Shown one piece after another: positions 3,488 through 52,287 of a stretch of 64,000 nt of DNA; the first letter of the stretch is position 1, and every line of letters starts with the position of its first letter. Under the pieces are notes generated by a model. It saw nothing but the letters and a program-made list of their open reading frames with translations. It had not been told where the DNA came from and searched no databases. The stretch spans positions 218-64,217 of the forward strand of contig CAYUQI010000006.1 in the NCBI GenBank assembly GCA_964446935.1. The letters run 5' to 3'. Origin of the DNA: an uncultured Pseudomonadota bacterium (GTDB taxonomy: Bacteria > Babelota > Babeliae > Babelales > RVW-14). Position numbers and translations under genes: made by a program.

Positions 3488-4291
3488 TTATCGTGATACA
3501 AGTGTTATCCCAAGGCTCTTCGCCTTGGTTATAAACTCATCTTTTTGAGCGATGAGGGTGCTTGATGATTGCCAGACAATTGCTTTGACATCACCGGATC
3601 CAAATGCTGCCAGCGATCCAGGACCGAGTGTTGGCAAGTCGAATGTTCGATTTTGATCAAACCGTGCTGCCTTGCAAATGACAACCCCGCCATGACCAAG
3701 TTGGATGCCGCGCTTAATGCAAGCATCTGTGCCTTCAATGGCTTCGACGGCGACAATCATCCCATCCTTTACCACCACCGTTTGCCCAATATTGGCATGA
3801 GCAATGGCAATGGCCGCCTCAAGCCCCATGGTGCTATCACGTTCAATTTCTGATGTAACAGTGCCGGTTAGAATTCCAGGAGGTACTAATAACCCTCCAA
3901 GGACTGCGTCTTGTTTGATAACCGTGATGTTATTTCGTGCAAGCTCTGCAAGTAATGCCTCCATAACGTCTTTGTCACTTTTATAGATAAGCGACCCCAT
4001 CAACTTGATTGCAAGGAGGTCGAATTTGAGGTGCTTGAGTAAATTTGATTTATCAACTTTGCCAATAAAAAGAACTTTAGAGGTTCCTTTGCTTTTAAGT
4101 AGCTCAAGAATAGTCCCTGCCTTGTAGCATTCTTGGGCAATAAGTTCTGCATGATTTTTTATGATGCTTTGTAAGTGAACAGCATTATCTTCTGGAAATA
4201 GCGTAATAACAAAAAATTTTTCATTGGCGGCAATGAGATTTTTACAGGCTTCTGTTGGAAGGGTTCCTGTGCCAGCAATGACAGCGATCAT
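3488..4291 (-). CDS. lpxI: UDP-2,3-diacylglucosamine pyrophosphatase LpxI (DUF1009 family)
   Basis: N-terminal MIAVIAGTGTLP and C-terminal FDLPTLGP motifs are typical of LpxI. The gene overlaps the upstream lipid A cluster gene by 4 nt. Confidence 0.65.
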   Translation of the reverse strand: MIAVIAGTGTLPTEACKNLIAANEKFFVITLFPEDNAVHLQSIIKNHAELIAQECYKAGTILELLKSKGTSKVLFIGKVDKSNLLKHLKFDLLAIKLMGSLIYKSDKDVMEALLAELARNNITVIKQDAVLGGLLVPPGILTGTVTSEIERDSTMGLEAAIAIAHANIGQTVVVKDGMIVAVEAIEGTDACIKRGIQLGHGGVVICKAARFDQNRTFDLPTLGPGSLAAFGSGDVKAIVWQSSSTLIAQKDEFITKAKSLGITLVSR

Positions 4292-5232
4292 CTAACTCCA
4301 AGCATTTGTTCGATTTGAAAGGTGAGATTAAGTGCGGAAAGGTCTTGCTGAGGATTGCTGAGTTTTTCACCTGTTTTGATTGCAGTAATAAAATGTTCAA
4401 TTTCTAGCTTGAGCGGATTGTCTTTATACACAAAAACACGTTCAATGAGTGATTCTTGCTTATATTTAAGTTGATCGGCACCGACCTGGACACTTGAACT
4501 CATTTGACGATGAATAGAAAGATCCTGTGTTGTAAAATCAAGATGAAGATATTCATTTTTTTGATGCACAGCCATAGTACGTTTTTTGATTTGTGATGCA
4601 CGACTTGAAACAATGTTTGCAACTGTCCCATTATCAAATGTTATGCTTACCGCAGCAACGTCACAGGAATCTGAATATACTTTAGTGCCTTGTGCGGAAA
4701 ATGATGCAACTGGAGCATTAACGATCCCCAATACCAAATCTAAATCATGAATCATAAGATCAAGAACAACGCTATCTTTTTGCACACGAGGAGAAAATGG
4801 TCCCATGCGGTGACATTCGATGAGCGTTGGTTGGTTGATAATTTTTTTCAATTCTTGGATTGCTCCATTGAAACGTTCGACGTGTCCAACGTGCAAGGCG
4901 CAGTTATTTTGTTGTGCAAGTGCAACAAGTTCTTCCGCTTGTGTTAAATCATTGGTAAGTGGTTTTTCTAAGAGCACGTGCTTGCCACGTCTCAAGCATT
5001 CCTTGGCAACCTCATAGTGAGCTATGGTTGGTACGGCAACAATAACCCCATCAACCAAATCAATCCATTCAAGAAAATTTGCAGATTTAATAACTGTGGC
5101 GGCTTTGACTTTATTCCAGTTTGATTCAGTAGGATCGGCGATTGCTGTTAACTGTGCGCCTTGAATGAGTGCTGTATTTGATGCGTGATAGCCCCCCATG
5201 TGGCCTAATCCTATAACGCCTAATTTTACCAT
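4288..5232 (-). CDS. Gfo/Idh/MocA-family NAD(P)-dependent oxidoreductase (possible UDP-GlcNAc 3-dehydrogenase, GnnA-like)
   Basis: N-terminal Rossmann motif VIGLGHMGGYH and the EKP motif (LLEKPL). It sits between lpxA and lpxI with overlapping start and stop codons. Confidence 0.7.
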   Translation of the reverse strand: MVKLGVIGLGHMGGYHASNTALIQGAQLTAIADPTESNWNKVKAATVIKSANFLEWIDLVDGVIVAVPTIAHYEVAKECLRRGKHVLLEKPLTNDLTQAEELVALAQQNNCALHVGHVERFNGAIQELKKIINQPTLIECHRMGPFSPRVQKDSVVLDLMIHDLDLVLGIVNAPVASFSAQGTKVYSDSCDVAAVSITFDNGTVANIVSSRASQIKKRTMAVHQKNEYLHLDFTTQDLSIHRQMSSSVQVGADQLKYKQESLIERVFVYKDNPLKLEIEHFITAIKTGEKLSNPQQDLSALNLTFQIEQMLGVR

Positions 5233-6071
5233 GGTTGATCTTCTTGCTTTTGAGGTTGAACATCTAATCCAGATTTATGTGAGATTCCGCGGGTGCTTTG
5301 TTGTATAAAGGTAATGAATGATTGAACGTAGGCATCAGAGCCCCATGCTTCTTGTGTTGCTTGGGCGACGATTGTTGTAATGTTCTGCTTATCTTGGAAA
5401 AAAAGCTTGCTAACATGCTTGAGTGCATTGATGCTGTCGCGTGAAAAACCGGCTCGTTTGAGACCAATAAGATTGAGGCCATAAAAGTGCGCAGGTTGCC
5501 CACTGAATAAACAAAATGGTGGAAGATCTTGTCGAATACCACTGTAAGGTGCCAATGCCGTGAATTGTCCAATGCGGCAGAATTGGTGGGTGGCGCTACC
5601 GGCCATAACAATGACATTTTTTTCAAGATGTGTATGACCACCAAGATTGACATTGTTAATGAGGGTAACATTGTCTTCAAGCGTTGCATCGTGAGACACA
5701 TGGGCAAAGTTCATGAGGTAGCAGTTATTGCCGATAGATGTTTTGCCATCGTTGTACCGTGAAGCATGGACCGTGACAAATTCACGTAATTCACAATTGT
5801 TGCCAATATGGATAGAACCAAGGCTTTCTTTTAAGTTTGTAACCTGTCCTGGAAACCCTACCATAACATGTGAATGGAGACGTGTGTTATCTCCAATGGT
5901 AACATTACCTGTCACAACACAAAATGGGCCTATTTTTACATTGGAACCAAGACGAACATTATCACCAATGATAGCGGTGGGGTGAATAAATGTTTGATCT
6001 GAATGAAAGAAAGCTTCCTCGAAGGAGGAAGCTTTCTGCTGCGTACTTTTTTTAATCGTTGAGACATTCAC
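5226..6071 (-). CDS. lpxA: acyl-ACP--UDP-N-acetylglucosamine O-acyltransferase LpxA
   Basis: Left-handed beta-helix hexapeptide repeats (IHPTAIIGDNVRLGSNVKIGPFCVVTGNVTIGDNTRLHSHV) followed by an LpxA-like C-terminal helical domain. Confidence 0.8.
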   Translation of the reverse strand: MNVSTIKKSTQQKASSFEEAFFHSDQTFIHPTAIIGDNVRLGSNVKIGPFCVVTGNVTIGDNTRLHSHVMVGFPGQVTNLKESLGSIHIGNNCELREFVTVHASRYNDGKTSIGNNCYLMNFAHVSHDATLEDNVTLINNVNLGGHTHLEKNVIVMAGSATHQFCRIGQFTALAPYSGIRQDLPPFCLFSGQPAHFYGLNLIGLKRAGFSRDSINALKHVSKLFFQDKQNITTIVAQATQEAWGSDAYVQSFITFIQQSTRGISHKSGLDVQPQKQEDQPW

Positions 6072-6090
6072 GATGCGTCCTTCATTTGAA

Positions 6091-6165
6091 TGGTTGGGGC
6101 GGAAGGATTCGAACCTCCGAATGGCGGAACCAAAATCCGCTGCCTTACCACTTGGCTACGCCCCA
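6091..6165 (-). tRNA. tRNA-Gln (anticodon UUG), CCA encoded
   Basis: Reverse complement is TGGGGCGTAGCCAAGTGGTAAGGCAGCGGATTTTGGTTCCGCCATTCGGAGGTTCGAATCCTTCCGCCCCAACCA. It has a 7-bp acceptor stem, anticodon stem GCGGA/TCCGC with loop TT-TTG-GT, and T-loop GGTTCGAATCC. Confidence 0.9.
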
Positions 6166-6201
6166 AAAAAAAATGACATGGACACAAGTATAATGGTTTA
6201 T

Positions 6202-6468
6202 TTATTCTTCGCCAACGACTTTTTTGTATTCTTCAATAATACGATCTTCAATAAGCTTTCTTGTATCTGCATTAAGCGGATGGACAATATCTTTGAAAGA
6301 GCCATCTTTTTTACGACGGGAAGGCATGGAAACAAAATACCCATTGTCACTTTTGATGATTTTCATGTCACGGACAATGAAGCATTCGTCAAAAACCATA
6401 GTTGCATAACCCTTAAGGCGGCCTTCATTGGCGGGAAAAACTTTTACTTCTGTAATATTCATGAGCAT
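6202..6468 (-). CDS. spoVG: SpoVG family protein
   Basis: MNITEVKVFPANEGRLKGYATMVFDECFIVRDMKIIKSDNGYFVSMPSRR is a classic SpoVG N-terminal domain. The ORF-track start at 6519 is probably too far upstream; likely starts are 6468 or 6462. Confidence 0.85.
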   Translation of the reverse strand: MLMNITEVKVFPANEGRLKGYATMVFDECFIVRDMKIIKSDNGYFVSMPSRRKKDGSFKDIVHPLNADTRKLIEDRIIEEYKKVVGEE

Positions 6469-6561
6469 ATCCCCGGTTCGACAGGTAGCGAGCGACGTGT
6501 CGTATACTGTGCTGCGCACCGTTTTGTGATACTTCTAAAAACTTATGACAAATATAGCTTA

Positions 6562-6590
6562 AATCTAGGATTAAGCACCTACTTTGTCAA
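6562..6590 (-). promoter_or_regulatory. sigma70-type promoter candidate for spoVG
   Basis: The minus strand reads TTGACA-17 nt-TAGATT, about 85-95 nt upstream of the spoVG start. Confidence 0.4.
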
Positions 6591-6676
6591 CCTTTTGTAA
6601 AATTTTAGGGCTGTTTTTATCTCATTTAGTGTATAAAAAGCTACGATTTGTTGCTTTTTATGATTTTTTTTAATGT

Positions 6677-7576
6677 TTATTTTTTCTCAACAGCTCTGAG
6701 TTTGGCTGAGCGGGCAGAAGGATTAATGGCGACTTCTTCTGCGCTTGCAGTAATCGGTTTTGGGGTTAAATTTGTCAATTCATTCTCGTGTTCTTTGGCA
6801 AAGGTTTTGACAAGGCGGTCTTCAAGTGAATGGAAGCTGATGCATACCAGTCTGCCCCCAGGATTGATAAATCGAATTGCCGAACTTAAGAAGGATTGAA
6901 TGTTATCAAGTTCATTGTTAACCGCAATACGAAGCGCTTGGAAGATACGTGTTGCTGGGTGTATTCCATGTTGGGCTTTAAATGGCTTGAGTGGGATTAC
7001 GTATTCAACCAATGCTACCAAATCACCGGTGGTTTTAAAGGGGTGCCGCTTACGCGATTCTACAATTGCTCGTGCAAGGGTGCGTGATTTTGGCTCTTGC
7101 CCATATTCTTGAAAAATATGTACGATTTTTTGTTCTGGCCATTCATTGAGGATTGTTGCTGCTGTTAGATGTTGATGGGCCGGTGACATGCGCATGTCAA
7201 GAGGAGTATCGTATTGAAATGAAAATCCCGCACGTTGGAAAATCTGAAATTGTGAGGTGCCAAAGTCTGCTAATATGCCATCAACGGTATTTATTTTTTC
7301 TTTTTTTAAAATCTTATAAAGAAGTGCAAAATTACCCCAGATGACCTGCAATCGATCGCCAAATGCTTCTTGAAGCGGTGGTGCATTGTGTTCAATGGCT
7401 TGCATGTCCCAATCCAGTGCAATGACCGAGCACGTTGGTTCTGCTTCAAGGATTGCACGGGTGTGTCCGCCGCCACCAAAGGTTACATCAAGATAACGTT
7501 TATGAGGTTGTGGCGCTAAGTAATGAAGAACCTCGTTGACGAGTACTGGTTTGTGGTAGGTGTTGGTTGTTGCCAT
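6677..7576 (-). CDS. rsmH: 16S rRNA (cytosine1402-N4)-methyltransferase RsmH/MraW
   Basis: HKPVLVNEVL...DVTFGGGGHT...SFHSLEDRLVK motifs. Confidence 0.9.
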   Translation of the reverse strand: MATTNTYHKPVLVNEVLHYLAPQPHKRYLDVTFGGGGHTRAILEAEPTCSVIALDWDMQAIEHNAPPLQEAFGDRLQVIWGNFALLYKILKKEKINTVDGILADFGTSQFQIFQRAGFSFQYDTPLDMRMSPAHQHLTAATILNEWPEQKIVHIFQEYGQEPKSRTLARAIVESRKRHPFKTTGDLVALVEYVIPLKPFKAQHGIHPATRIFQALRIAVNNELDNIQSFLSSAIRFINPGGRLVCISFHSLEDRLVKTFAKEHENELTNLTPKPITASAEEVAINPSARSAKLRAVEKK

Positions 7577-7582
7577 GATTTG

Positions 7583-8800
7583 CTACTTTTTCTCTGCCAT
7601 GCGATGTTTAACTCCCTTGCTTTCATGCGTATAGATCTTAGTAAAATCAATGTCACTTGCTTCTTTTGGTACAAAATCTAAGAAGTCTTGCATGATACCA
7701 TATTTTTCAACATCAACAATGATCTTGGTATTTTTGAGCCTAAAAAGCTCACCCAGATTGAGTTTGTATCGAGTGTCTAATGTCTCGTAGGTACAATTAA
7801 TTGCCAAATCTTCTTCGTCTTCATCAAACACTGCTAAATATCCTCGTACATATTCGCGGTCACGCTTGGTAACAATAGGATCAATATCAACGATCCCTAT
7901 TTCACCTGGTTCTAATCTGATAAGTGGAGTTTTATCATATCGCCACACGGTCATGTCGTCTTTGCTTTCAGTTGCGGCTACCCAATCACCCTTAGCCTTT
8001 TTTTGATAGACAAAGCAGGTAACGATGATTGGCTTTCCTGTTGTATTCTCTACTGCAAAATCAAGTTCATAAGGAGCTTCAGCTTCGACTTCTTTTTTGG
8101 GAACAAAATCATATTCAAAGAATTCACCCTTGAACCCATAATGTTCAATTTCAAGGGTTACTTTTTTCCCTTTTAATTTTATGAGTTGGTCAAGATCAAG
8201 AAGATTTCGATCGTCGGAGAGTTCATATGTAGCATCTTCTGCTGATTTTTTATCTTTAAATATTCCTAAGTAACCAAAAACGTAATTGCGATCTTGTTCA
8301 TCGGGAATGGTATCAACGTCCATTGTGACGGTTTGATTATCTTCAATTATGTAAACAGGTGATTTGTCCCAACGCCAGTTGCCAAAGTAGCGTTTGCGTT
8401 GGTATGCAAAACAGGTTACGTACACTGTTTGTCCCGTTTTGTTTTCGACATCGAAATCGAGTTCTTTGGGATTATCTGAATCATAGGTTTCTGTTTTAAC
8501 ATGCCGTTTAGTTATTTTATAGGTGGGAGCTGTTGTATTTTCATCTTCTTGCTCTTTTTGGGTAGATGATGTTTCAAGTTCTGATGGTGGTTGTGATGTT
8601 GGCATGGTTGGCAAAACTGTTTCTTGTGCTTGGGTTTGGATAGGTTCTTCAGGAGAAGGCAACGACGGTATGAAACTTGTTTCTTGTTGCTGAGAATGTT
8701 TTGGCGTGACGGAATGTTGTTTGCATTGAGGAAATAAAAACAATAACAGTATTCCAAGAGCGTAGATTATTGGCATATGATGTGACATTTTTGACTTCAT
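7583..8800 (-). CDS. hypothetical secreted protein with two tandem copies of an unknown ~130-aa domain
   Basis: Signal-like N-terminus and a P/Q/T/E-rich linker. Two homologous modules follow (ELDFDVENKTGQTVYVTCFAYQRK... and ELDFAVENTTGKPIIVTCFVYQKK...), each ending in ...DFVPKK/E. Confidence 0.6.
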   Translation of the reverse strand: MKSKMSHHMPIIYALGILLLFLFPQCKQHSVTPKHSQQQETSFIPSLPSPEEPIQTQAQETVLPTMPTSQPPSELETSSTQKEQEDENTTAPTYKITKRHVKTETYDSDNPKELDFDVENKTGQTVYVTCFAYQRKRYFGNWRWDKSPVYIIEDNQTVTMDVDTIPDEQDRNYVFGYLGIFKDKKSAEDATYELSDDRNLLDLDQLIKLKGKKVTLEIEHYGFKGEFFEYDFVPKKEVEAEAPYELDFAVENTTGKPIIVTCFVYQKKAKGDWVAATESKDDMTVWRYDKTPLIRLEPGEIGIVDIDPIVTKRDREYVRGYLAVFDEDEEDLAINCTYETLDTRYKLNLGELFRLKNTKIIVDVEKYGIMQDFLDFVPKEASDIDFTKIYTHESKGVKHRMAEKK

Positions 8801-37897: not shown

Positions 37898-38701
37898 TTA
37901 AACGTATATAAACTTAATTGGCAATCCACCACGTCCATCTATCAGCATATTTTCGAAATTGAATCCTTTGTCCGTCCCTTTAAGTTTTAATGACATGATT
38001 ACTTCTGTTATATAATTGAACCAACATTTAAGGGTTTGAAGATTTTGCGGGATTTTAAGTATTTTCAGATCGTCACAGCATTCGCAATTAAGGTCCTGAA
38101 GTGAATCTGGAAGCTTTTCTAATATAGTCAATTTCTTGCAGTTAAAGCAATCAAGGGCTACGATTTGGTGTCTTATAGAACATAAGATTGTTTGTAGTTG
38201 TCTGGTTGATATGGTGGTGTTGCTTACAGCTAAACGTATCCTGATTGGTTGTGAGCTAGGTGCAAAAAGCTTTTCTAATTTAAGAATTGTGGTTTTAAGA
38301 GCAAGGAAACTCTCTAGATTGTCTTCAGTTATATGCACGGTGTAATAAAACTCAACAATATCGATGCTTCTTTCGGTAAATAACGCTAACAATTGTTGTA
38401 GTTGCTCAACAGACATGTCCATAACGTCTATATCGAGTTTAACGTGTGCTATGAACGTATGATTTGTGAAATATTGTCTTTCTTCTGCCATTTTTTTCTG
38501 AAAAGTATTGTTATTAATGAGGTTTTGCTGTGTTACATAAACAGTGTGTATAAACTTCGGTTTCTTGGTGGGATCATCAATAAGATTGGCTTCTGTCGCG
38601 TTACGCTTTCCTTTTCTTGGTTGTTCGATGGCATTAAGTGAACAACAGGCAATAAGCGCTAATGCCGATATACTTGCTTTTAAAAGAGTAGTGAGCTTCA
38701 T
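37898..38701 (-). CDS. secreted leucine-rich-repeat (Cys-containing LRR) protein
   Basis: Signal peptide. The C-terminal repeats LDCFNCKKLTILEKLPDSLQDLNCECCDDLKILKIPQNLQTLKCWFN resemble the LRR units of the adjacent gene. Confidence 0.6.
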   Translation of the reverse strand: MKLTTLLKASISALALIACCSLNAIEQPRKGKRNATEANLIDDPTKKPKFIHTVYVTQQNLINNNTFQKKMAEERQYFTNHTFIAHVKLDIDVMDMSVEQLQQLLALFTERSIDIVEFYYTVHITEDNLESFLALKTTILKLEKLFAPSSQPIRIRLAVSNTTISTRQLQTILCSIRHQIVALDCFNCKKLTILEKLPDSLQDLNCECCDDLKILKIPQNLQTLKCWFNYITEVIMSLKLKGTDKGFNFENMLIDGRGGLPIKFIYV

Positions 38702-38746: not shown

Positions 38747-40273
38747 TCATTGAACATATGTTATGTGATCTTTAAGGTGTGGACAATTTTTTAAGAGTTC
38801 TGCTTCAAGCTTCTTCTGTCCAAAATGTAATGTTGCTGTTGTTAACCCTGTACAACCATTACAGGAGAGCCATTTAAGGCTATTTGGAAGTTGCAGAGCT
38901 GTTAATCCAGTACAACCACTACAAAAGAGTTCGGTAAGCCTATCTGGAAGTTGTAGCGCTGTAAACCCAGTACACCCATTACAGGAGAACTGTGTAAGAC
39001 TATTTGGAAGTTGTAGAGCTGTTAATCCAGTACAATCATTACATGAGAGTGTTGCAAGGCCATTTGGAAGTTGTAGTGATGTTAACCCTGTACAACCATT
39101 ACATGAGAGTGTTGCAAGGCCATTTGGAAGTTGTAGTGATGTTAACCATGTACAACCACTACAAAGGAGTTCGGTAAGGCTATTTGGAAGTTGTAGAGCT
39201 GTTAATCCAGTACAACTATTACAGTAGAGTGTTGTAAGGCCATTTGGGAGGTGTAGTGATGTTAATCCAGTGCAACCATTACAGGAGAACATTGTAAGGC
39301 TATTTGGAAGTTGTAGTGATGTTAATCCTGTACAACCATCACAGGAGAGCCATGTGAGGCTATTTGGAAGGTGTAGAGCTGTTATTTTTGTAACATTATT
39401 ACAACTAAGGGAGGTGATATTGTTACAACCGGTAGCGTTGAGAGATTTCATTGAGTTTTGTATTTGTGGTAACGCCAATAACCTTGCTAGCTGATTGTTA
39501 GTTATGTTCGTATTGCTGACATCGACATGTAGAGTTTTAATTTGGGGATTTTTTGCCAAGAAATTGGACAAGTCAATTAAAAATTTATCAAAAGACGTTA
39601 ACGTTTTATTTGTTATTCTTATCGTTATTTTATTAACTGTTTGCCCAATTGTTTGTAAATATTTACATGCTCGTTTCATAGAAAGTAAATCGTAAATAGG
39701 GCTGTTGTTTATTTGTGTGGCTTTTATTGATGAAGACGATGATGTATTTGAAGATGAATCATTATTTTCATGAGTCTCTGTAGTAGATGACGTTTGGGCA
39801 ACAAAATTGGCTATGAGCACTAAAATTTCTGGTGGCAATACATCGAGATCTCCGGCAGATAAGCAGTTTTTAATGTTTTGTTCCTGAGGGGGGTTGCATT
39901 GTATAGTAAAAGTTTCAATATCACTATTGCTTTGTTTGATGTTGTTTGTTTGCACGACTGTTGTTGATGAAGATGATGATGAACTTGAAGCTGGATGATT
40001 GTTTATATGAAGATTTGTAGCTTCCTGAAGTATTTCAATATCAGCAAATTCACCTCCCCGTGTTCTTTCAATTGTTAGAATTTGTTTGCAGAGGCTGTTA
40101 ATATTGCTGCCTTCGTACTTATTCTTATTCATGGTTAAAAGATTTTTAATGTGTAGTGCTCGTTCATCGAGGTCTCTTATTTGCTCGTTCATATTCATTG
40201 CCCCTGCTTGCGGAATGCAGGCAGCAAGTATTATTACTGCTGTACCGATTTTTAAAATATGAGTGAGTTTCAT
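38747..40273 (-). CDS. F-box-like / 20-residue Cys-containing LRR protein (eukaryote-like SCF substrate-receptor mimic candidate)
   Basis: The start at 40273 (MKLTHILK...) is preceded by GGAGG. It contains LDVLPPEILVLIANFV (F-box helix-1-like), poly-Ser/Thr tracts, and then nine repeats of LQLPNxLTxLSCNGCTGLTS. Confidence 0.65.
   Translation of the reverse strand: MKLTHILKIGTAVIILAACIPQAGAMNMNEQIRDLDERALHIKNLLTMNKNKYEGSNINSLCKQILTIERTRGGEFADIEILQEATNLHINNHPASSSSSSSSTTVVQTNNIKQSNSDIETFTIQCNPPQEQNIKNCLSAGDLDVLPPEILVLIANFVAQTSSTTETHENNDSSSNTSSSSSIKATQINNSPIYDLLSMKRACKYLQTIGQTVNKITIRITNKTLTSFDKFLIDLSNFLAKNPQIKTLHVDVSNTNITNNQLARLLALPQIQNSMKSLNATGCNNITSLSCNNVTKITALHLPNSLTWLSCDGCTGLTSLQLPNSLTMFSCNGCTGLTSLHLPNGLTTLYCNSCTGLTALQLPNSLTELLCSGCTWLTSLQLPNGLATLSCNGCTGLTSLQLPNGLATLSCNDCTGLTALQLPNSLTQFSCNGCTGFTALQLPDRLTELFCSGCTGLTALQLPNSLKWLSCNGCTGLTTATLHFGQKKLEAELLKNCPHLKDHITYVQ
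38837..39440 (-). repeat. in-frame 60-bp tandem repeat array (about 9 clean units plus degenerate units) encoding the LRR domain
   Basis: Successive 60-nt lines of the sequence align almost column for column (for example 39061-39120 against 39121-39180). Confidence 0.85.
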
Positions 40274-40804
40274 AACTAAAAACCTCCGAATATGATCTAA
40301 TTTACAATTTTTGCTGATTTGTAATGAAATTGAGTAATGGAATATTAAAATCCTATCACACTTCCCCTGATAAGTAAAATTATACATCTGTAAATAAACG
40401 ACCCCGGTATTGATGTTTTCAGCTTGAAACAAATTGGCTAATATCGCGCAACGGCTTTATTCAGTATGAAACCATAAGTTTTGTTTTATTGGCAGCGTTA
40501 TTTTCAAATAATCTCTCTCTATTTATTCCCAGATTGAAAATTTTATGATTTTTGACCGCCAGCGACTACTTTGAGCTCCCTAGTTCAAGCATTAACCCTG
40601 TGAAAAACATTCAATAAAATTGATTTTCGTTGGTGTCTTTTGTTTTGTCGATTAGGTCGATGTATTGACGATATTTTTCATTTTGAGACAGGTAATGGGA
40701 ATAAATCTTAATGGAAAAAAAACATGTTATACGGTACAATGCATTGGTAATGAAATTTATTAAAAAGAGAGAAATCTCAAAACCTCCTGTAGAAAGGACT
40801 TTTC

Positions 40805-50715: not shown

Positions 50716-50823
50716 TGAGCATCCTTTGGTAACTTTTTATAGTAAATTTCATTTTTGGGTTATTTTGTTGTATGTTTTCCTGCTATTATACCCATTATTG
50801 ATCATTATAGGAGTTTTAGTCTC

Positions 50824-52287
50824 ATGAATCGAATAGTAACATCATTTTTCACGATTTTTGCGTCTGCGCTTTGTTTGATGACGACGTCTTTAGATGCTAA
50901 ACGCCAGCAGCTAAAAAAAGCAGAGCAACAGGTTGATGGTTTAATAAAAACAATTAAACACAGCCATAATCAAAAAGCAGAACAAAAATCGACGGAGTTA
51001 ACAGCTCGTGCTGTTCCACGACATGCTATCGTTGTTTCCGAGCTTAATCTGTATAAACTTTTGTACGCAGCAAGTAAAAATATTGATGAGGTTGTTAAAG
51101 ATTCTTTGGTTAAACAAGATGATTCGGGTGATCAATCGAAAGCTTTTTTGATTGCCCTTGATTTGGTCAATGAAGCAATGCAACTAATGGAGCAGGTTGT
51201 TGCTGCAATAAATAAACAGGCTTTTAGCTTTAATCCCGATATTGAATACCATTTCCTTAAGGTTTGCAATTATCCAAAAGATGTCGACATGGAGGATCTC
51301 GCTCCTCGTCACATACGTGATGTTCGCCAACGTGTTAAGAAGTTTAATCAATATGTAACCTTGTATTGCATTAATCATAAAAATTTTTTAGGAGAAGAGG
51401 ATCTTGCGTTATTTAATAAAATTCTACGATTTAATCATATTTTATTGTTGTGTATATTGCGTGAGGATTACTTTGATATAAGCATACTAAGCCTGTTGAT
51501 GGATACCATTGTTTTTCAACCGTGGGAATTTATTTGTAAACATCCATATCTTGTTATGACAGTTGTTGCAATTATTATTGCTGCTGTGATTTATTTTTAT
51601 GTGTATCCACGATGGTTTAGCTTACGAAATCTTAATAAAGAATATGATGTGATGCAAGTGGAGGGGGCTCGCCAGAATGATGGCAGCAGTTGCGGTTATT
51701 ATGGTCTTCTGCATGCTCTCATTAATCGCAATGCCAAAAACGAGGAAGAACGACAACAATTGTTAGAACGGATCAAAAATAATCCCGATGTTATAAAGCC
51801 ATGGCGCGATCATATGGATGCCATACGAGCAGAGTTTATGGAAGTGGGGATTCCTAGCGATCGTAAAGATCCTTTTGAATCAATCAATTTATTGGATTCT
51901 TATCAGATAGCTGCAATTCGGGATGATCATGCTCTTGTTAATAAAGTTATGCAACCATTATTAGGTAGACCAGCTGATGTCTCAAATGTTGTTGTTGTTG
52001 ATACATTTGCAGGTGATGAAGTGTACAATAAGAAAACAGAAAAGATGATGAATGTGCACAATAATCAAAAAGAACAAATAATACGTGATAGTGTACAAAA
52101 TTTACAAGAGGAAAGCATTCCGCAACACGTTGTTCTTCGGATTCCTGGTCATTGGATAGCGGTGAGCGTCGAATCCGATGACAACAAAAAACATGGTATT
52201 CAGGCACGGATTATCAATTCCACACGAGGAAATGTAACAAATAATTCTAAGGTATCGCGTCTTTTGCAAGAGTATCAGCCTAAATAA
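50824..52287 (+). CDS. membrane-associated papain-fold cysteine protease with UCH-like active-site motif (deubiquitinase-like candidate)
   Basis: Signal-like N-terminus, a helical region and an internal TM helix (LVMTVVAIIIAAVIYFYVY). Then QNDGSSCGYYGLLHAL, with Gln six residues before Cys as in papain/UCH (Cys codon 51691-51693). The downstream motif is IPGHWIAVSV (His codon 52150-52152). Confidence 0.5.
   Translation: MNRIVTSFFTIFASALCLMTTSLDAKRQQLKKAEQQVDGLIKTIKHSHNQKAEQKSTELTARAVPRHAIVVSELNLYKLLYAASKNIDEVVKDSLVKQDDSGDQSKAFLIALDLVNEAMQLMEQVVAAINKQAFSFNPDIEYHFLKVCNYPKDVDMEDLAPRHIRDVRQRVKKFNQYVTLYCINHKNFLGEEDLALFNKILRFNHILLLCILREDYFDISILSLLMDTIVFQPWEFICKHPYLVMTVVAIIIAAVIYFYVYPRWFSLRNLNKEYDVMQVEGARQNDGSSCGYYGLLHALINRNAKNEEERQQLLERIKNNPDVIKPWRDHMDAIRAEFMEVGIPSDRKDPFESINLLDSYQIAAIRDDHALVNKVMQPLLGRPADVSNVVVVDTFAGDEVYNKKTEKMMNVHNNQKEQIIRDSVQNLQEESIPQHVVLRIPGHWIAVSVESDDNKKHGIQARIINSTRGNVTNNSKVSRLLQEYQPK

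Follow-up and report, generated by a model that had tools for sequence, protein, structure and literature searches.

Does the minus-strand gene at 38747-40273 of the window, the whole 64,000-nucleotide stretch of DNA analyzed here, encode a bacterial imitation of the F-box/LRR receptors by which eukaryotes select proteins for ubiquitination? An earlier note on this DNA had described an F-box-like motif joined to nine 20-residue Cys-containing LRRs, and both were confirmed on a minus-strand open reading frame of 508 amino acids (P0001). Judged from its sequence, we consider it an even call that P0001 is a Sec-exported, host-directed mimic of a eukaryotic F-box/LRR substrate receptor in a Babeliales parasite of protists. 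The gene and its immediate surroundings, in window coordinates, are as follows.

40283..40287, minus strand: Shine-Dalgarno sequence GGAGG, 9 nt upstream of the ATG at 40273, read directly from the sequence
38747..40273, minus strand: whole gene of P0001, 508 aa, the open reading frame including its stop codon at 38747-38749
37898..38701, minus strand: downstream paralogue P0002, 267 aa, with an LIAC signal peptide/lipobox and the same C-terminal cap

The ATG at 40273 is likely the start codon, since GGAGG precedes it at the distance given above, the relatives of the protein begin with MKLT, and a 2-bp deletion found just upstream of this ATG in a related strain would break a longer, TTG-started frame. 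That longer frame of 561 aa was rejected as the gene on the basis of the same deletion and the placement of the GGAGG. The source genome was assigned to a Babeliales (Dependentiae/TM6) bacterium, its RecA being 76% identical to that of a Candidatus Babeliales MAG with synteny in agreement, and eukaryotic contamination was rejected in view of the bacterial synteny and the ribosome site. Within the conserved Babeliales block carD-miaA-[slot]-ppiD-recA, P0001 occupies the variable slot, the content of which differs among Babeliales genomes. The same window also encodes a strong eukaryote-type USP (PF00443, 117.6 bits).

P0002 begins 45 nt past the stop codon of P0001, and from this spacing we infer that the two genes are probably co-transcribed. 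It comprises two copies of the module that precedes the regular LRRs in P0001 and three short Cys-LRRs, and is devoid of the F-box-like helices.

An exhaustive HMMER search against 1.84 billion representatives identified P0035 and P0037 as the only relatives of P0001; both possess a signal peptide, LPPE[IM]xxxIAx[FY], a short loop and DLLxxEQxCxYLxxIG, followed by LRRs. With three known members, the family yields thin profiles. Full-length homology matches from phage-like and other unrelated proteins were rejected as family members, as they covered the LRRs only. A word-index homology search with residues 1-300 of P0001 returned only P0001 itself, the search having probably been swamped by poly-Ser words, and one with residues 85-215 of P0035 returned only the query. 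Metagenome contigs scanned with the family alignment gave no match, genome contigs searched with P0001 gave neither a related locus nor P0001 itself, and no contig record encoding P0001 was found.

The variable slot, the tiny size of the family and the low-complexity tracts would all suit a repeat gene in decay or devoid of function, the motif matches of which arose by chance. We regard this as very improbable, as the reading frame is intact over all 508 codons behind a good ribosome site, a ~95% identical strain keeps both the frame and the conserved helices, and the architecture recurs in two distant homologues.

The N-terminal part of the protein was delineated as follows.

40199..40273, minus strand: signal peptide, residues 1-25, MKLTHILKIGTAVIILAACIPQAGA followed by M, with an AxA signal-peptidase I site; judged by eye
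39869..40198, minus strand: N-terminal variable region, residues 26-135, with an S8TT tract; absent from the relatives, AlphaFold2 pLDDT below 50

In the related strain, a 9-base in-frame deletion falls near residues 118-121 of this variable region. The signal peptide, called by eye from the sequence, is followed directly by Met after the cleavage site in all three family members. It also contains a lipobox-like LAAC (C19), which could keep P0001 attached to the bacterial cell. According to this alternative, signal peptidase II cuts before C19, P0001 is a bacterial lipoprotein anchored in the envelope, and contact with the host takes place at the bacterial surface only. The residues L16-A17-A18-C19 do fit the lipobox [LVI][ASTVI][GAS]C, and P0002 carries LIAC at the same place; P0035 and P0037, however, lack a lipobox and have a signal-peptidase I site (xDA|M or AGA|M) at the aligned position, and we consider lipid anchoring improbable. 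Dependentiae have no known injection system, and access of P0001 to the host cytosol is in that light an assumption. By its genome, its by-eye signal peptide and its LRRs above Pfam thresholds, P0001 belongs with the Sec-exported eukaryote-like repeat proteins of Dependentiae, in which Sec plus a type II secretion system (T2SS) and signal-peptide-bearing eukaryote-like proteins are on record (PMC6561590, PMC4776705).

The region described as F-box-like was resolved into two helices and an intervening loop.

39794..39847, minus strand: F-box-like helix 1, L143-Q160, LDVLPPEILVLIANFVAQ, from Pfam F-box-like and hhalign matches
39692..39793, minus strand: loop between helices 1 and 2 (H1-H2), T161-Y194, 34 residues rich in Ser/Thr/Asn, from alignments
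39698-39775, minus strand: the extra 26 aa of the loop, T167-P192, surplus relative to both homologues
39638..39691, minus strand: F-box-like helix 2, D195-T212, DLLSMKRACKYLQTIGQT, from hhalign and from Pfam profile positions 2-34 with the insertion removed

The second helix has the core DLLSMKRACKYL, and D195-G210 reads DLLSMKRACKYLQTIG. At the start of helix 1, LPPE was invariant in P0001, P0035 and P0037, as was IA, and LPPE was unchanged in the strain variant. That a Ser/Thr/Asn-rich insertion of ~34 aa splits the two helices had already been noticed, and the relatives bore this out: in P0035 and P0037 the same helices are joined by a loop of ~10 residues, so that the insertion in P0001 is real and lineage-specific. 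The ~95% identical strain displayed seven nonsynonymous changes and one synonymous change in loop residues 162-189; in residues 143-160 and 193-212 the only amino-acid changes were I150V and I193V, the former being the sole change in helix 1 and helix 2 (D195-T212) having none.

Searched at full length and in its native form, P0001 gave no F-box match in Pfam. When segments were isolated from the three proteins, Pfam F-box-like (PF12937) was the top or only match for each, over profile positions 1/2-34/37, with native scores of 14.5-18.3 bits (P0035, 17.6; P0037, 18.3). Removal of the insertion, as the earlier note had proposed, brought the P0001 segment from 14.6 bits to 19-23.8 bits, which still did not reach the gathering threshold of 24.3. 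PF00646 and F-box_4 also matched the insertion-removed sequence, the former at 16.5 bits against a cut-off of 20.5. The score was nevertheless distinguishable from that of shuffled sequence, the comparison that the note had singled out, in that 0 of 100 residue shuffles matched any F-box model, while the actual sequence without the insertion did so at E = 3.9e-5. Weak matches to DUF4476 (17.6 bits) and Csx12 were dismissed as noise.

Profile-profile comparison was carried out with hhalign. Against a reference F-box alignment of six sequences, three of which were entered by hand, the family profile reached 92% probability with a score of 33.0 (column-shuffle null 8.1 ± 1.8, maximum 16.5), and against the PDB-derived Skp2 and Fbw7 sequences only, it reached 68.8% with a score of 25.3 (null maximum 12.5). 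Helix 1 scored 23.2 against helix 1 of the F-box (null maximum 12.4) and helix 2 scored 18.8 against F-box helices 2/3 (null maximum 11.6), while the comparisons with the non-cognate halves gave 7.0 and 4.7, the null level. The similarity to F-box profiles thus exceeded chance for both helices, and in the correct order. Several results pointed the other way. The two-helix family profile retrieved no F-box chain from the PDB at E ≤ 10, just noise (Aurora kinase, eIF3b). A six-sequence F-box HMM failed to discriminate between the family and 8562 control ORFs, a result which we put down to the small size of the HMM and yet count against the F-box. The conserved F-box Trp (V-C-K-x-W) is absent, P0001 (L206) and P0035 having Leu at this position and P0037 having Phe; the helix-3 Trp is absent as well, the chain entering a beta strand (ITIRIT) ~8 residues past the position of L206. 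AlphaFold2, run with a single sequence and with a 4-row alignment, placed helices of P0001 at residues 148-161 and 192-208, and those of P0035 at residues 94-104 and 110-131. Confidence in the F-box region was low in both runs: averaged over blocks of 10 residues, the pLDDT of these helices did not exceed ~52 in either model. Taken together, these data constitute moderate evidence, drawn from sequence, for an F-box in P0001, and support the view of its two helices as a split F-box-like module.

Behind the helices lies an LRR solenoid with its cap.

39377..39637, minus strand: irregular N-terminal LRR units with helical backs, residues 213-299, from AlphaFold2 secondary structure
39470-39541, minus strand: FBXL10/11-like unit I245-L268, IKTLHVDVSNTNITNNQLARLLAL, with PDB matches only to KDM2A/KDM2B
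38837..39376, minus strand: nine 20-residue repeats, residues 300-479, consensus LQLPNSLTxLSCNGCTGLTS
38750..38836, minus strand: C-terminal cap, residues 480-508, ..EAELLKNCPHLKDHITYVQ, conserved in P0035 and P0002; two helices and a final strand in AlphaFold2

Conservation within the family is highest over residues 213-299, and the same module is present in P0002. Of the LRR units behind the helices, the first (LHVDVSNTNITNNQLARLL) matched the first LRR of KDM2A/KDM2B (FBXL11/10), weakly, at E values of 0.0089-0.13. These proteins were the sole PDB matches of an LRR-only profile, and with a family profile that included the F-box part, KDM2B, KDM2A and FBXL5 accounted for four of the six top PDB sequences. 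Solely the unit I245-L268 fits xLxVxx[SC]xTxIT[NE]xQLxxLL. The main repeats follow LxLPxxLxxLxCxxCTGLTx in nine in-register units of 20 aa, detected by Tandem Repeats Finder as a 60-bp period of 9.1 copies at 38840-39384; compared in pairs, the units are on average 81% identical in nucleotide sequence. Their variable positions (6, 8, 9, 11 and 13) are mostly the x positions of LxxLxCxxC, on the concave face. With their 20-residue period, they do not conform to the 26-residue Cys-LRR of FBXL type (LxxLxLxxCxxITDxxLxxL). Pfam LRR_4 and LRR_EndoS exceeded their thresholds in P0001, and the FNIP match reached only E = 0.43. The Foldseek neighbours of the solenoid were IpaH/SspH/YopM/SlrP and giant-virus FNIP repeats. 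Among the 50 Foldseek matches listed there was no Skp2 or FBXL chain, and the only F-box/LRR receptor among them was rice D3 with ASK1 (rank 45, E = 0.04, P0001 model). The same Cys-LRR type was seen in P0024, fused there to a HECT domain. The proposal of an FBXL-type receptor mimic thus held in part: the helices match the F-box halves and the first LRR resembles that of KDM2A/KDM2B, but no Pfam gathering score was attained and the 20-residue repeats are not of FBXL type.

These data can also be read without any link to the SCF ligase. P0001 would then be a secreted or surface LRR binder, its solenoid taking hold of a ligand from the host or the environment as an adhesin, an internalin or a scaffold does, and its two helices, too degenerate to recruit Skp1, would serve as an LRR N-cap or linker. 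Such a binder accounts for the sub-threshold value of every F-box score, the PDB profile search without an F-box match, the low AlphaFold2 confidence of the helices and the retention of the LRR module without them in P0002; the neighbours of the solenoid are moreover of IpaH/SspH/YopM type, YopM being a scaffold without a ligase part. It leaves unexplained why LPPE and the hydrophobic pattern of helix 2 are the best conserved N-terminal features, kept while the loop diverges, why each of the two helices matches the corresponding half of the F-box, in the proper order, and why the next LRR unit resembles FBXL10/11 specifically. We rate it as possible, if on the unlikely side.

Under the preferred reading, that of an exported F-box/LRR receptor mimic, the signal peptide would be removed and P0001 would leave the bacterial cell, probably by Sec plus a type II route; its export into the host, its binding to Skp1 and the fate of its target are what we infer from its features. 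The helices LPPEILxxIAxF and DLLxxxxxCxYL would constitute a degenerate F-box docking on host Skp1, the H1-H2 loop of which would have taken up the fast-evolving 26-residue Ser/Thr/Asn insertion. The solenoid, arranged as irregular units including the well-conserved FBXL10/11-like one, nine Cys units of IpaH/YopM/FNIP geometry and the conserved cap, would grip a protein of the host with its variable concave face, and the SCF ligase of the host would then ubiquitinate this protein, unless it is sequestered instead. As to origin, the tiny family founded by P0001 might be specific to Dependentiae and descend from a eukaryotic gene of FBXL10/11 type. The F-box and the first CC-type LRR of that gene would have been placed behind a Sec signal peptide and joined to a solenoid of short, IpaH/FNIP-like Cys-LRRs, with Skp1 binding preserved despite the hypervariable low-complexity loop insertion. 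We regard this derivation as doubtful.

The Dependentiae literature offers only domain counts, and the P0001 locus provides a concrete, tractable case, in which the family members differ naturally in a 26-residue insertion inside the putative F-box. The protein combines a chimeric solenoid, FBXL-like in its first unit and IpaH/FNIP-like thereafter, with a Sec signal peptide and no injection signal. If it does bind Skp1, it would support the notion that widespread protist parasites manipulate host ubiquitination through Sec-exported proteins, and would map the degree of F-box degeneration compatible with function; if it does not, it would serve as a warning against F-box calls from LPxE motifs. 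Were the derivation from FBXL10/11 correct, an F-box would be seen to tolerate large H1-H2 loop insertions, and a working SCF receptor to be deliverable through Sec/T2SS without an injection system.

Among known systems, AnkB of Legionella pneumophila is a bacterial F-box protein that exploits the host SCF. AnkB unites its F-box with ankyrin repeats, a C-terminal CaaX and Dot/Icm delivery, whereas P0001 has LRRs, gave no Pfam match to ankyrin repeats and ends in ..ITYVQ, without a CaaX; the earlier note had cited AnkB-type effectors as mimics of the F-box plus LRR architecture, and Ralstonia GALA and Neochlamydia NEX1a are nearer analogues. The eukaryotic FBXL proteins (KDM2A/KDM2B, FBXL5) share with P0001 the order of F-box and LRR, and FBXL5 (ITHLPPEVMLSIFSYL) agrees with the LPPE[VI] of helix 1. 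In the first LRR unit, LDLSWTNISKKQL is similar to LDVSKTNISNEQL and VDVSNTNITNNQL of the P0001 family. The E values of the matches are only 0.009-1.6. Unlike P0001, these proteins possess 26-residue CC-LRRs, keep the F-box Trp residues, and have neither a signal peptide nor a low-complexity loop insertion. IpaH/SspH/SlrP/YopM, the best Foldseek matches, share with P0001 a solenoid of 20-22-residue LPxxLxxLxxxxNxL units, and the LRR of IpaH/SspH is the part by which a ubiquitin ligase recognizes its substrate. P0001 differs from the IpaH type in having no NEL domain, in its Cys in place of Asn and of the preceding Leu/Val (LxCxxC), and in Sec rather than type III export. Membership of the IpaH/SspH NEL family was rejected, since P0001 ends 29 residues past the last repeat and NCBIfam SspH2 gave 11.5 bits against a cut-off of 1243. 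The F-box and FNIP proteins of Mimiviridae and Dictyostelium (PMC9525666) resemble P0001 in their short LP-containing LRR-like repeats and in the connection with protist parasites, the FNIP consensus LxxLxFGxxFNQxI spanning ~22-23 residues versus the 20 of P0001. An 'F-box and FNIP repeat-containing' protein of Acanthamoeba polyphaga mimivirus and CroV 7zal were among the structural matches.

The GALA proteins of Ralstonia solanacearum bind the Skp1-like ASK proteins of their host. These effectors were reportedly treated by Angot and colleagues in 2006. Like P0001 in the preferred reading, GALA proteins are bacterial F-box and LRR proteins, and they imitate the FBXL-type receptors of plants (PMC2244805); their LRRs are all of the 24-residue CC type, their F-box is canonical and their delivery is by type III secretion, whereas in P0001 only the first units are CC/FBXL-like and the nine main repeats have 20 residues. 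NEX1a of Neochlamydia, an obligate intracellular bacterium of amoebae, is thought to be a family of SCF-hijacking effectors (Domman et al., 2014; PMC4209131). It combines F-box and LRR, by its description, as P0001 probably does, and differs in belonging to the Chlamydiae, in being a type III secretion substrate where P0001 has a Sec signal peptide, and in having 138 members against the three known for the P0001 family. F-box/LRR mimicry is thus already known in other intracellular bacteria, and P0001 probably represents a new small family within it.

The gene under study proved to be an intact frame of 508 codons on the minus strand (38747-40273), with GGAGG located 9 nt upstream of its start codon, ATG 40273. 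A longer, TTG-started frame (to 40432) was considered unlikely to be the gene, since the downstream paralogue P0002 and one homologue likewise start with MKLT, and since 2 bp are deleted directly upstream of the ATG in a related strain (window 40276). The parts of its product, P0001, are listed below.

Features of P0001
Residues L143-Q160, minus strand: helix 1, LDVLPPEILVLIANFVAQ
Residues T161-Y194, minus strand: Ser/Thr/Asn-rich loop
Residues D195-G210, minus strand: helix 2, DLLSMKRACKYLQTIG
Residues 300-479 (38837-39376), minus strand: nine in-register 20-residue units, consensus LQLPNSLTxLSCNGCTGLTS

The F-box helix-1-like motif, the Ser/Thr/Asn-rich insertion and the distal-helix-like motif of the earlier note were thus all present as described. 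Its nine Cys-containing leucine-rich repeats (LRRs) were also borne out, both by a tandem period of 60 bp (38840-39384, 9.1 copies, Tandem Repeats Finder) and by LRR_4 and LRR_EndoS scores above the Pfam thresholds. Mean pairwise nucleotide identity of the repeats was 81%, with 92% between units 5 and 6.

RecA, encoded 2.5 kb from P0001, shared 76% identity with its counterpart in a Candidatus Babeliales MAG, and the gene order carD-miaA-slot-ppiD-recA was common to the seven best loci. P0001 and the 267-aa P0002 (37898-38701, minus strand; starting 45 nt past the P0001 stop codon) occupy the miaA-ppiD slot on the opposite strand. In the closest relative, this slot holds an unrelated 196-aa signal-peptide ORF (L001 5042-5632, minus strand) with no Pfam match, and in another relative a different gene. 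Because slot content differs among relatives, the P0001 gene is lineage-specific cargo, carried on the chromosome of a bacterium from the phylum Dependentiae (TM6). A 207-aa ORF lies in the slot of L003 on the other strand (5389-6012, plus strand), and L002 contains about 4 kb of additional DNA between ppiD and recA (3761-8001); the carD-miaA-ppiD-recA block seems to be a recurrent cargo-gene insertion site in Babeliales. The P0001 sequence was found in activated-sludge and bioreactor metagenomes. Dependentiae are obligate protist parasites with Sec and type II secretion, and encode many signal-peptide-bearing eukaryote-like proteins with ankyrin, LRR, F-box or WD40 domains (PMC6561590, PMC4776705). 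The window itself contains a ubiquitin-related set, namely a clear eukaryote-type USP deubiquitinase (62136-63110, minus strand; PF00443, 117.6 bits) and weak matches to the UCH family (59631-61442, minus strand; 19.8 bits) and Peptidase_C12 (50755-52287, plus strand; 18.6 bits).

Word-index searches returned no relatives for the N-terminal 300 residues of P0001. When 1.84 billion representatives were scanned exhaustively with HMMER, two true relatives emerged: P0035 (343 aa), encoded on an 8.2-kb bacterial contig from a metagenome, with tRNA-synthetase and Mur-ligase genes as neighbours, and P0037 (231 aa). In both, the signal peptide is followed by LPPE[IM]xxxIAx[FY], then by a loop of some 10 residues, DLLxxEQxCxYLxxIG, the conserved pre-LRR region and short LRRs, and P0035 also has the P0001-type C-terminal cap ending in ITYV. 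Compared with these two, P0001 carries 26 additional residues between the helices (T167-P192), and the family comparison thus shows the insertion to be real. In sequencing run X3, where coverage of the window's own strain is about 5x, a second strain of about 95% identity (about 26x) showed seven nonsynonymous changes and one synonymous change within loop residues 162-189, and only I150V and I193V across both helices (residues 143-160 and 193-212); these counts are small, but their distribution fits a free loop flanked by constrained helices. A decaying gene was judged highly improbable for this intact frame. Besides the 2-bp deletion upstream of the ATG, the second strain lacks 9 bases, in frame, near residues 118-121 (window 39912-39923), and shows a +1/-1 pair of indels spaced by 9 nt in the conserved QLARLL segment (39479-39488).

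Judged by eye, residues 1-25 of P0001 (MKLTHILKIGTAVIILAACIPQAGA) are arranged in n, h and c regions like a Sec signal peptide, M26 is preceded by an AxA site, and xDA followed by Met was found at the aligned position in both homologues. Since LAAC (C19) in P0001 and LIAC in P0002 fit a lipobox, an envelope-anchored lipoprotein remains a rival reading to an exported protein, albeit a rather improbable one. Met directly follows the predicted signal-peptidase site in all three proteins (AGA before M26 in P0001, VDA before M46 in P0035, ADA before M26 in P0037), which looks as if a signal peptide had been grafted ahead of an older start codon.

When the helical segments were isolated, the Pfam F-box-like family PF12937 was the top or sole family for each, aligned every time from profile position 1 or 2 to 34 or 37, with 14.6 bits for native P0001, 17.6 for P0035 and 18.3 for P0037. 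Removal of the extra loop residues, a check proposed in the earlier note, raised the P0001 score to 19-23.8 bits (three junctions) and additionally brought matches to PF00646 and F-box_4, yet no F-box score reached the Pfam gathering score of 24.3 (PF12937). The likeness also stood out from shuffled sequence: none of 100 residue shuffles matched any F-box family, and their best E-value to any Pfam family was 0.0015 versus 3.9e-5 for the real insertion-removed sequence. The latter also matched the uncharacterised family DUF5902 (PF19255; residues 146-178 joined to 193 onward, 15.8 bits over profile positions 2-34 of 104), and this family may itself be F-box-like at its N-terminus.

In hhalign, the family profile, built from three members only, matched a small F-box alignment (six sequences, three of them entered by hand) at 92% probability and score 33.0, against 8.1 ± 1.8 (maximum 16.5) in 300 column shuffles; with PDB-derived Skp2 and Fbw7 only, the values were 68.8% and 25.3 (null maximum 12.5). 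With split profiles, helix 1 matched F-box helix 1 (23.2, null maximum 12.4) and helix 2 matched F-box helix 2/3 (18.8, null maximum 11.6), while the cross-comparisons remained at null level (7.0 and 4.7). The two-helix profile retrieved no F-box chain from the PDB at E<=10, and with a six-sequence F-box HMM the family did not stand out from 8562 control ORFs. At most a truncated helix 3 is present in the family, and AlphaFold2 predicted two helices at a pLDDT of about 52 or lower (10-residue block means). Of the F-box likeness suggested earlier, the above-chance likeness of both helices to their cognate F-box halves thus holds, whereas the gathering threshold is not attained and the Trp of the CKxW signature is replaced by Leu or Phe. 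We consider that the helix pair is probably a true F-box derivative, and that its binding to Skp1 has an even chance or slightly less.

A profile of the F-box-like and pre-LRR regions gave six matches among all PDB sequences, four of them FBXL proteins: KDM2B twice (E=0.0089 and 0.014), KDM2A (0.038) and FBXL5 (1.6), the last aligning over both its LPPEV helix and one LRR unit. The pre-LRR profile alone matched only KDM2A and KDM2B, at the first LRR behind their F-box (KDM2A/B LDLSWTNISKKQL, P0001 VDVSNTNITNNQL, P0035 LDVSKTNISNEQL). Although the E-values are weak, the specificity of these matches for KDM2/FBXL proteins supports the view that the front of P0001 is FBXL-like in origin. In P0002, which has LIAC and three short Cys-LRRs and lacks the F-box-like helices, the pre-LRR module appears to occur twice in tandem (P0001 217-273 aligns to P0002 53-108 and 121-174).

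The LRR part is a chimera, the nine main repeats differing in kind from the front unit. Foldseek ranked the LRR domains of IpaH, SspH1/2, SlrP and YopM and a CroV FNIP protein at the top for both models; no Skp2/FBXL chain appeared among the 50 matches listed per model, where the sole F-box/LRR receptor was rice D3 with ASK1 (P0001 model, rank 45, E=0.04). Of the FBXL-type architecture proposed earlier, the front unit shows an FBXL likeness, and the main repeats lie nearer to IpaH/SspH/YopM/FNIP. An LRR binder without any SCF link is the chief rival reading, though a less likely one. In a viral structure library, the best matches were giant-virus FNIP and LRR proteins, including an Acanthamoeba polyphaga mimivirus protein annotated as F-box and FNIP repeat-containing; F-boxes with short LRR-like repeats are common in giant viruses of protists too. 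Within the repeat unit, the core LxxLxCxxCxxL comprises L7, L10, C12, C15 and L18, and positions 6, 8, 9, 11 and 13 vary. The x positions of the LRR beta-strand motif point to the concave binding surface in known structures, and on this basis positions 8, 9, 11 and 13 are assigned to the concave face. The CxxC pair (C12, C15) that every repeat contributes to the solenoid core (38837-39376, minus strand) accounts for 18 of the 26 Cys residues of P0001. An unrelated metagenomic protein, P0024 (819 aa), has about nine 20-residue Cys-LRR units of this type (LxCxxCTSL; LPELPNCxxLxCxxCTSLRA) fused to a ubiquitin-ligase domain of the HECT class at its C-terminus (PF00632, 30.3 bits).

In the mechanism we propose, P0001 would be exported via Sec and then probably the type II system, and would enter the host cell housing the bacterium; there the LPPE-bearing helix pair would dock onto host Skp1, and the solenoid would either sequester a host protein or present it to the SCF ligase. 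The analysis establishes the gene, its signal peptide, the anatomy of the repeats, the family and the likeness to F-box and FBXL profiles; delivery into the host cytosol, docking on Skp1 and the target are inferred. Taken as a whole, this scheme stands at roughly even chances.

P0001 is not an IpaH-family ligase, since it has no NEL domain, and the suggested likeness to Legionella AnkB-type effectors was not sustained because it has neither ankyrin repeats nor a CaaX box. An F-box-like domain, a conserved linker and LRRs, in this order, also make up Neochlamydia NEX1a, a family of 138 members that are type III substrates (PMC4209131), and the Ralstonia GALA effectors (PMC2244805). The F-box plus LRR architecture is thus already known; P0001 departs from it in four respects, namely the phylum, a Sec signal peptide instead of an injection signal, a sub-threshold F-box that carries an inserted loop, and a mixed solenoid in which 20-residue Cys units with IpaH-like geometry come after an FBXL-like first unit.
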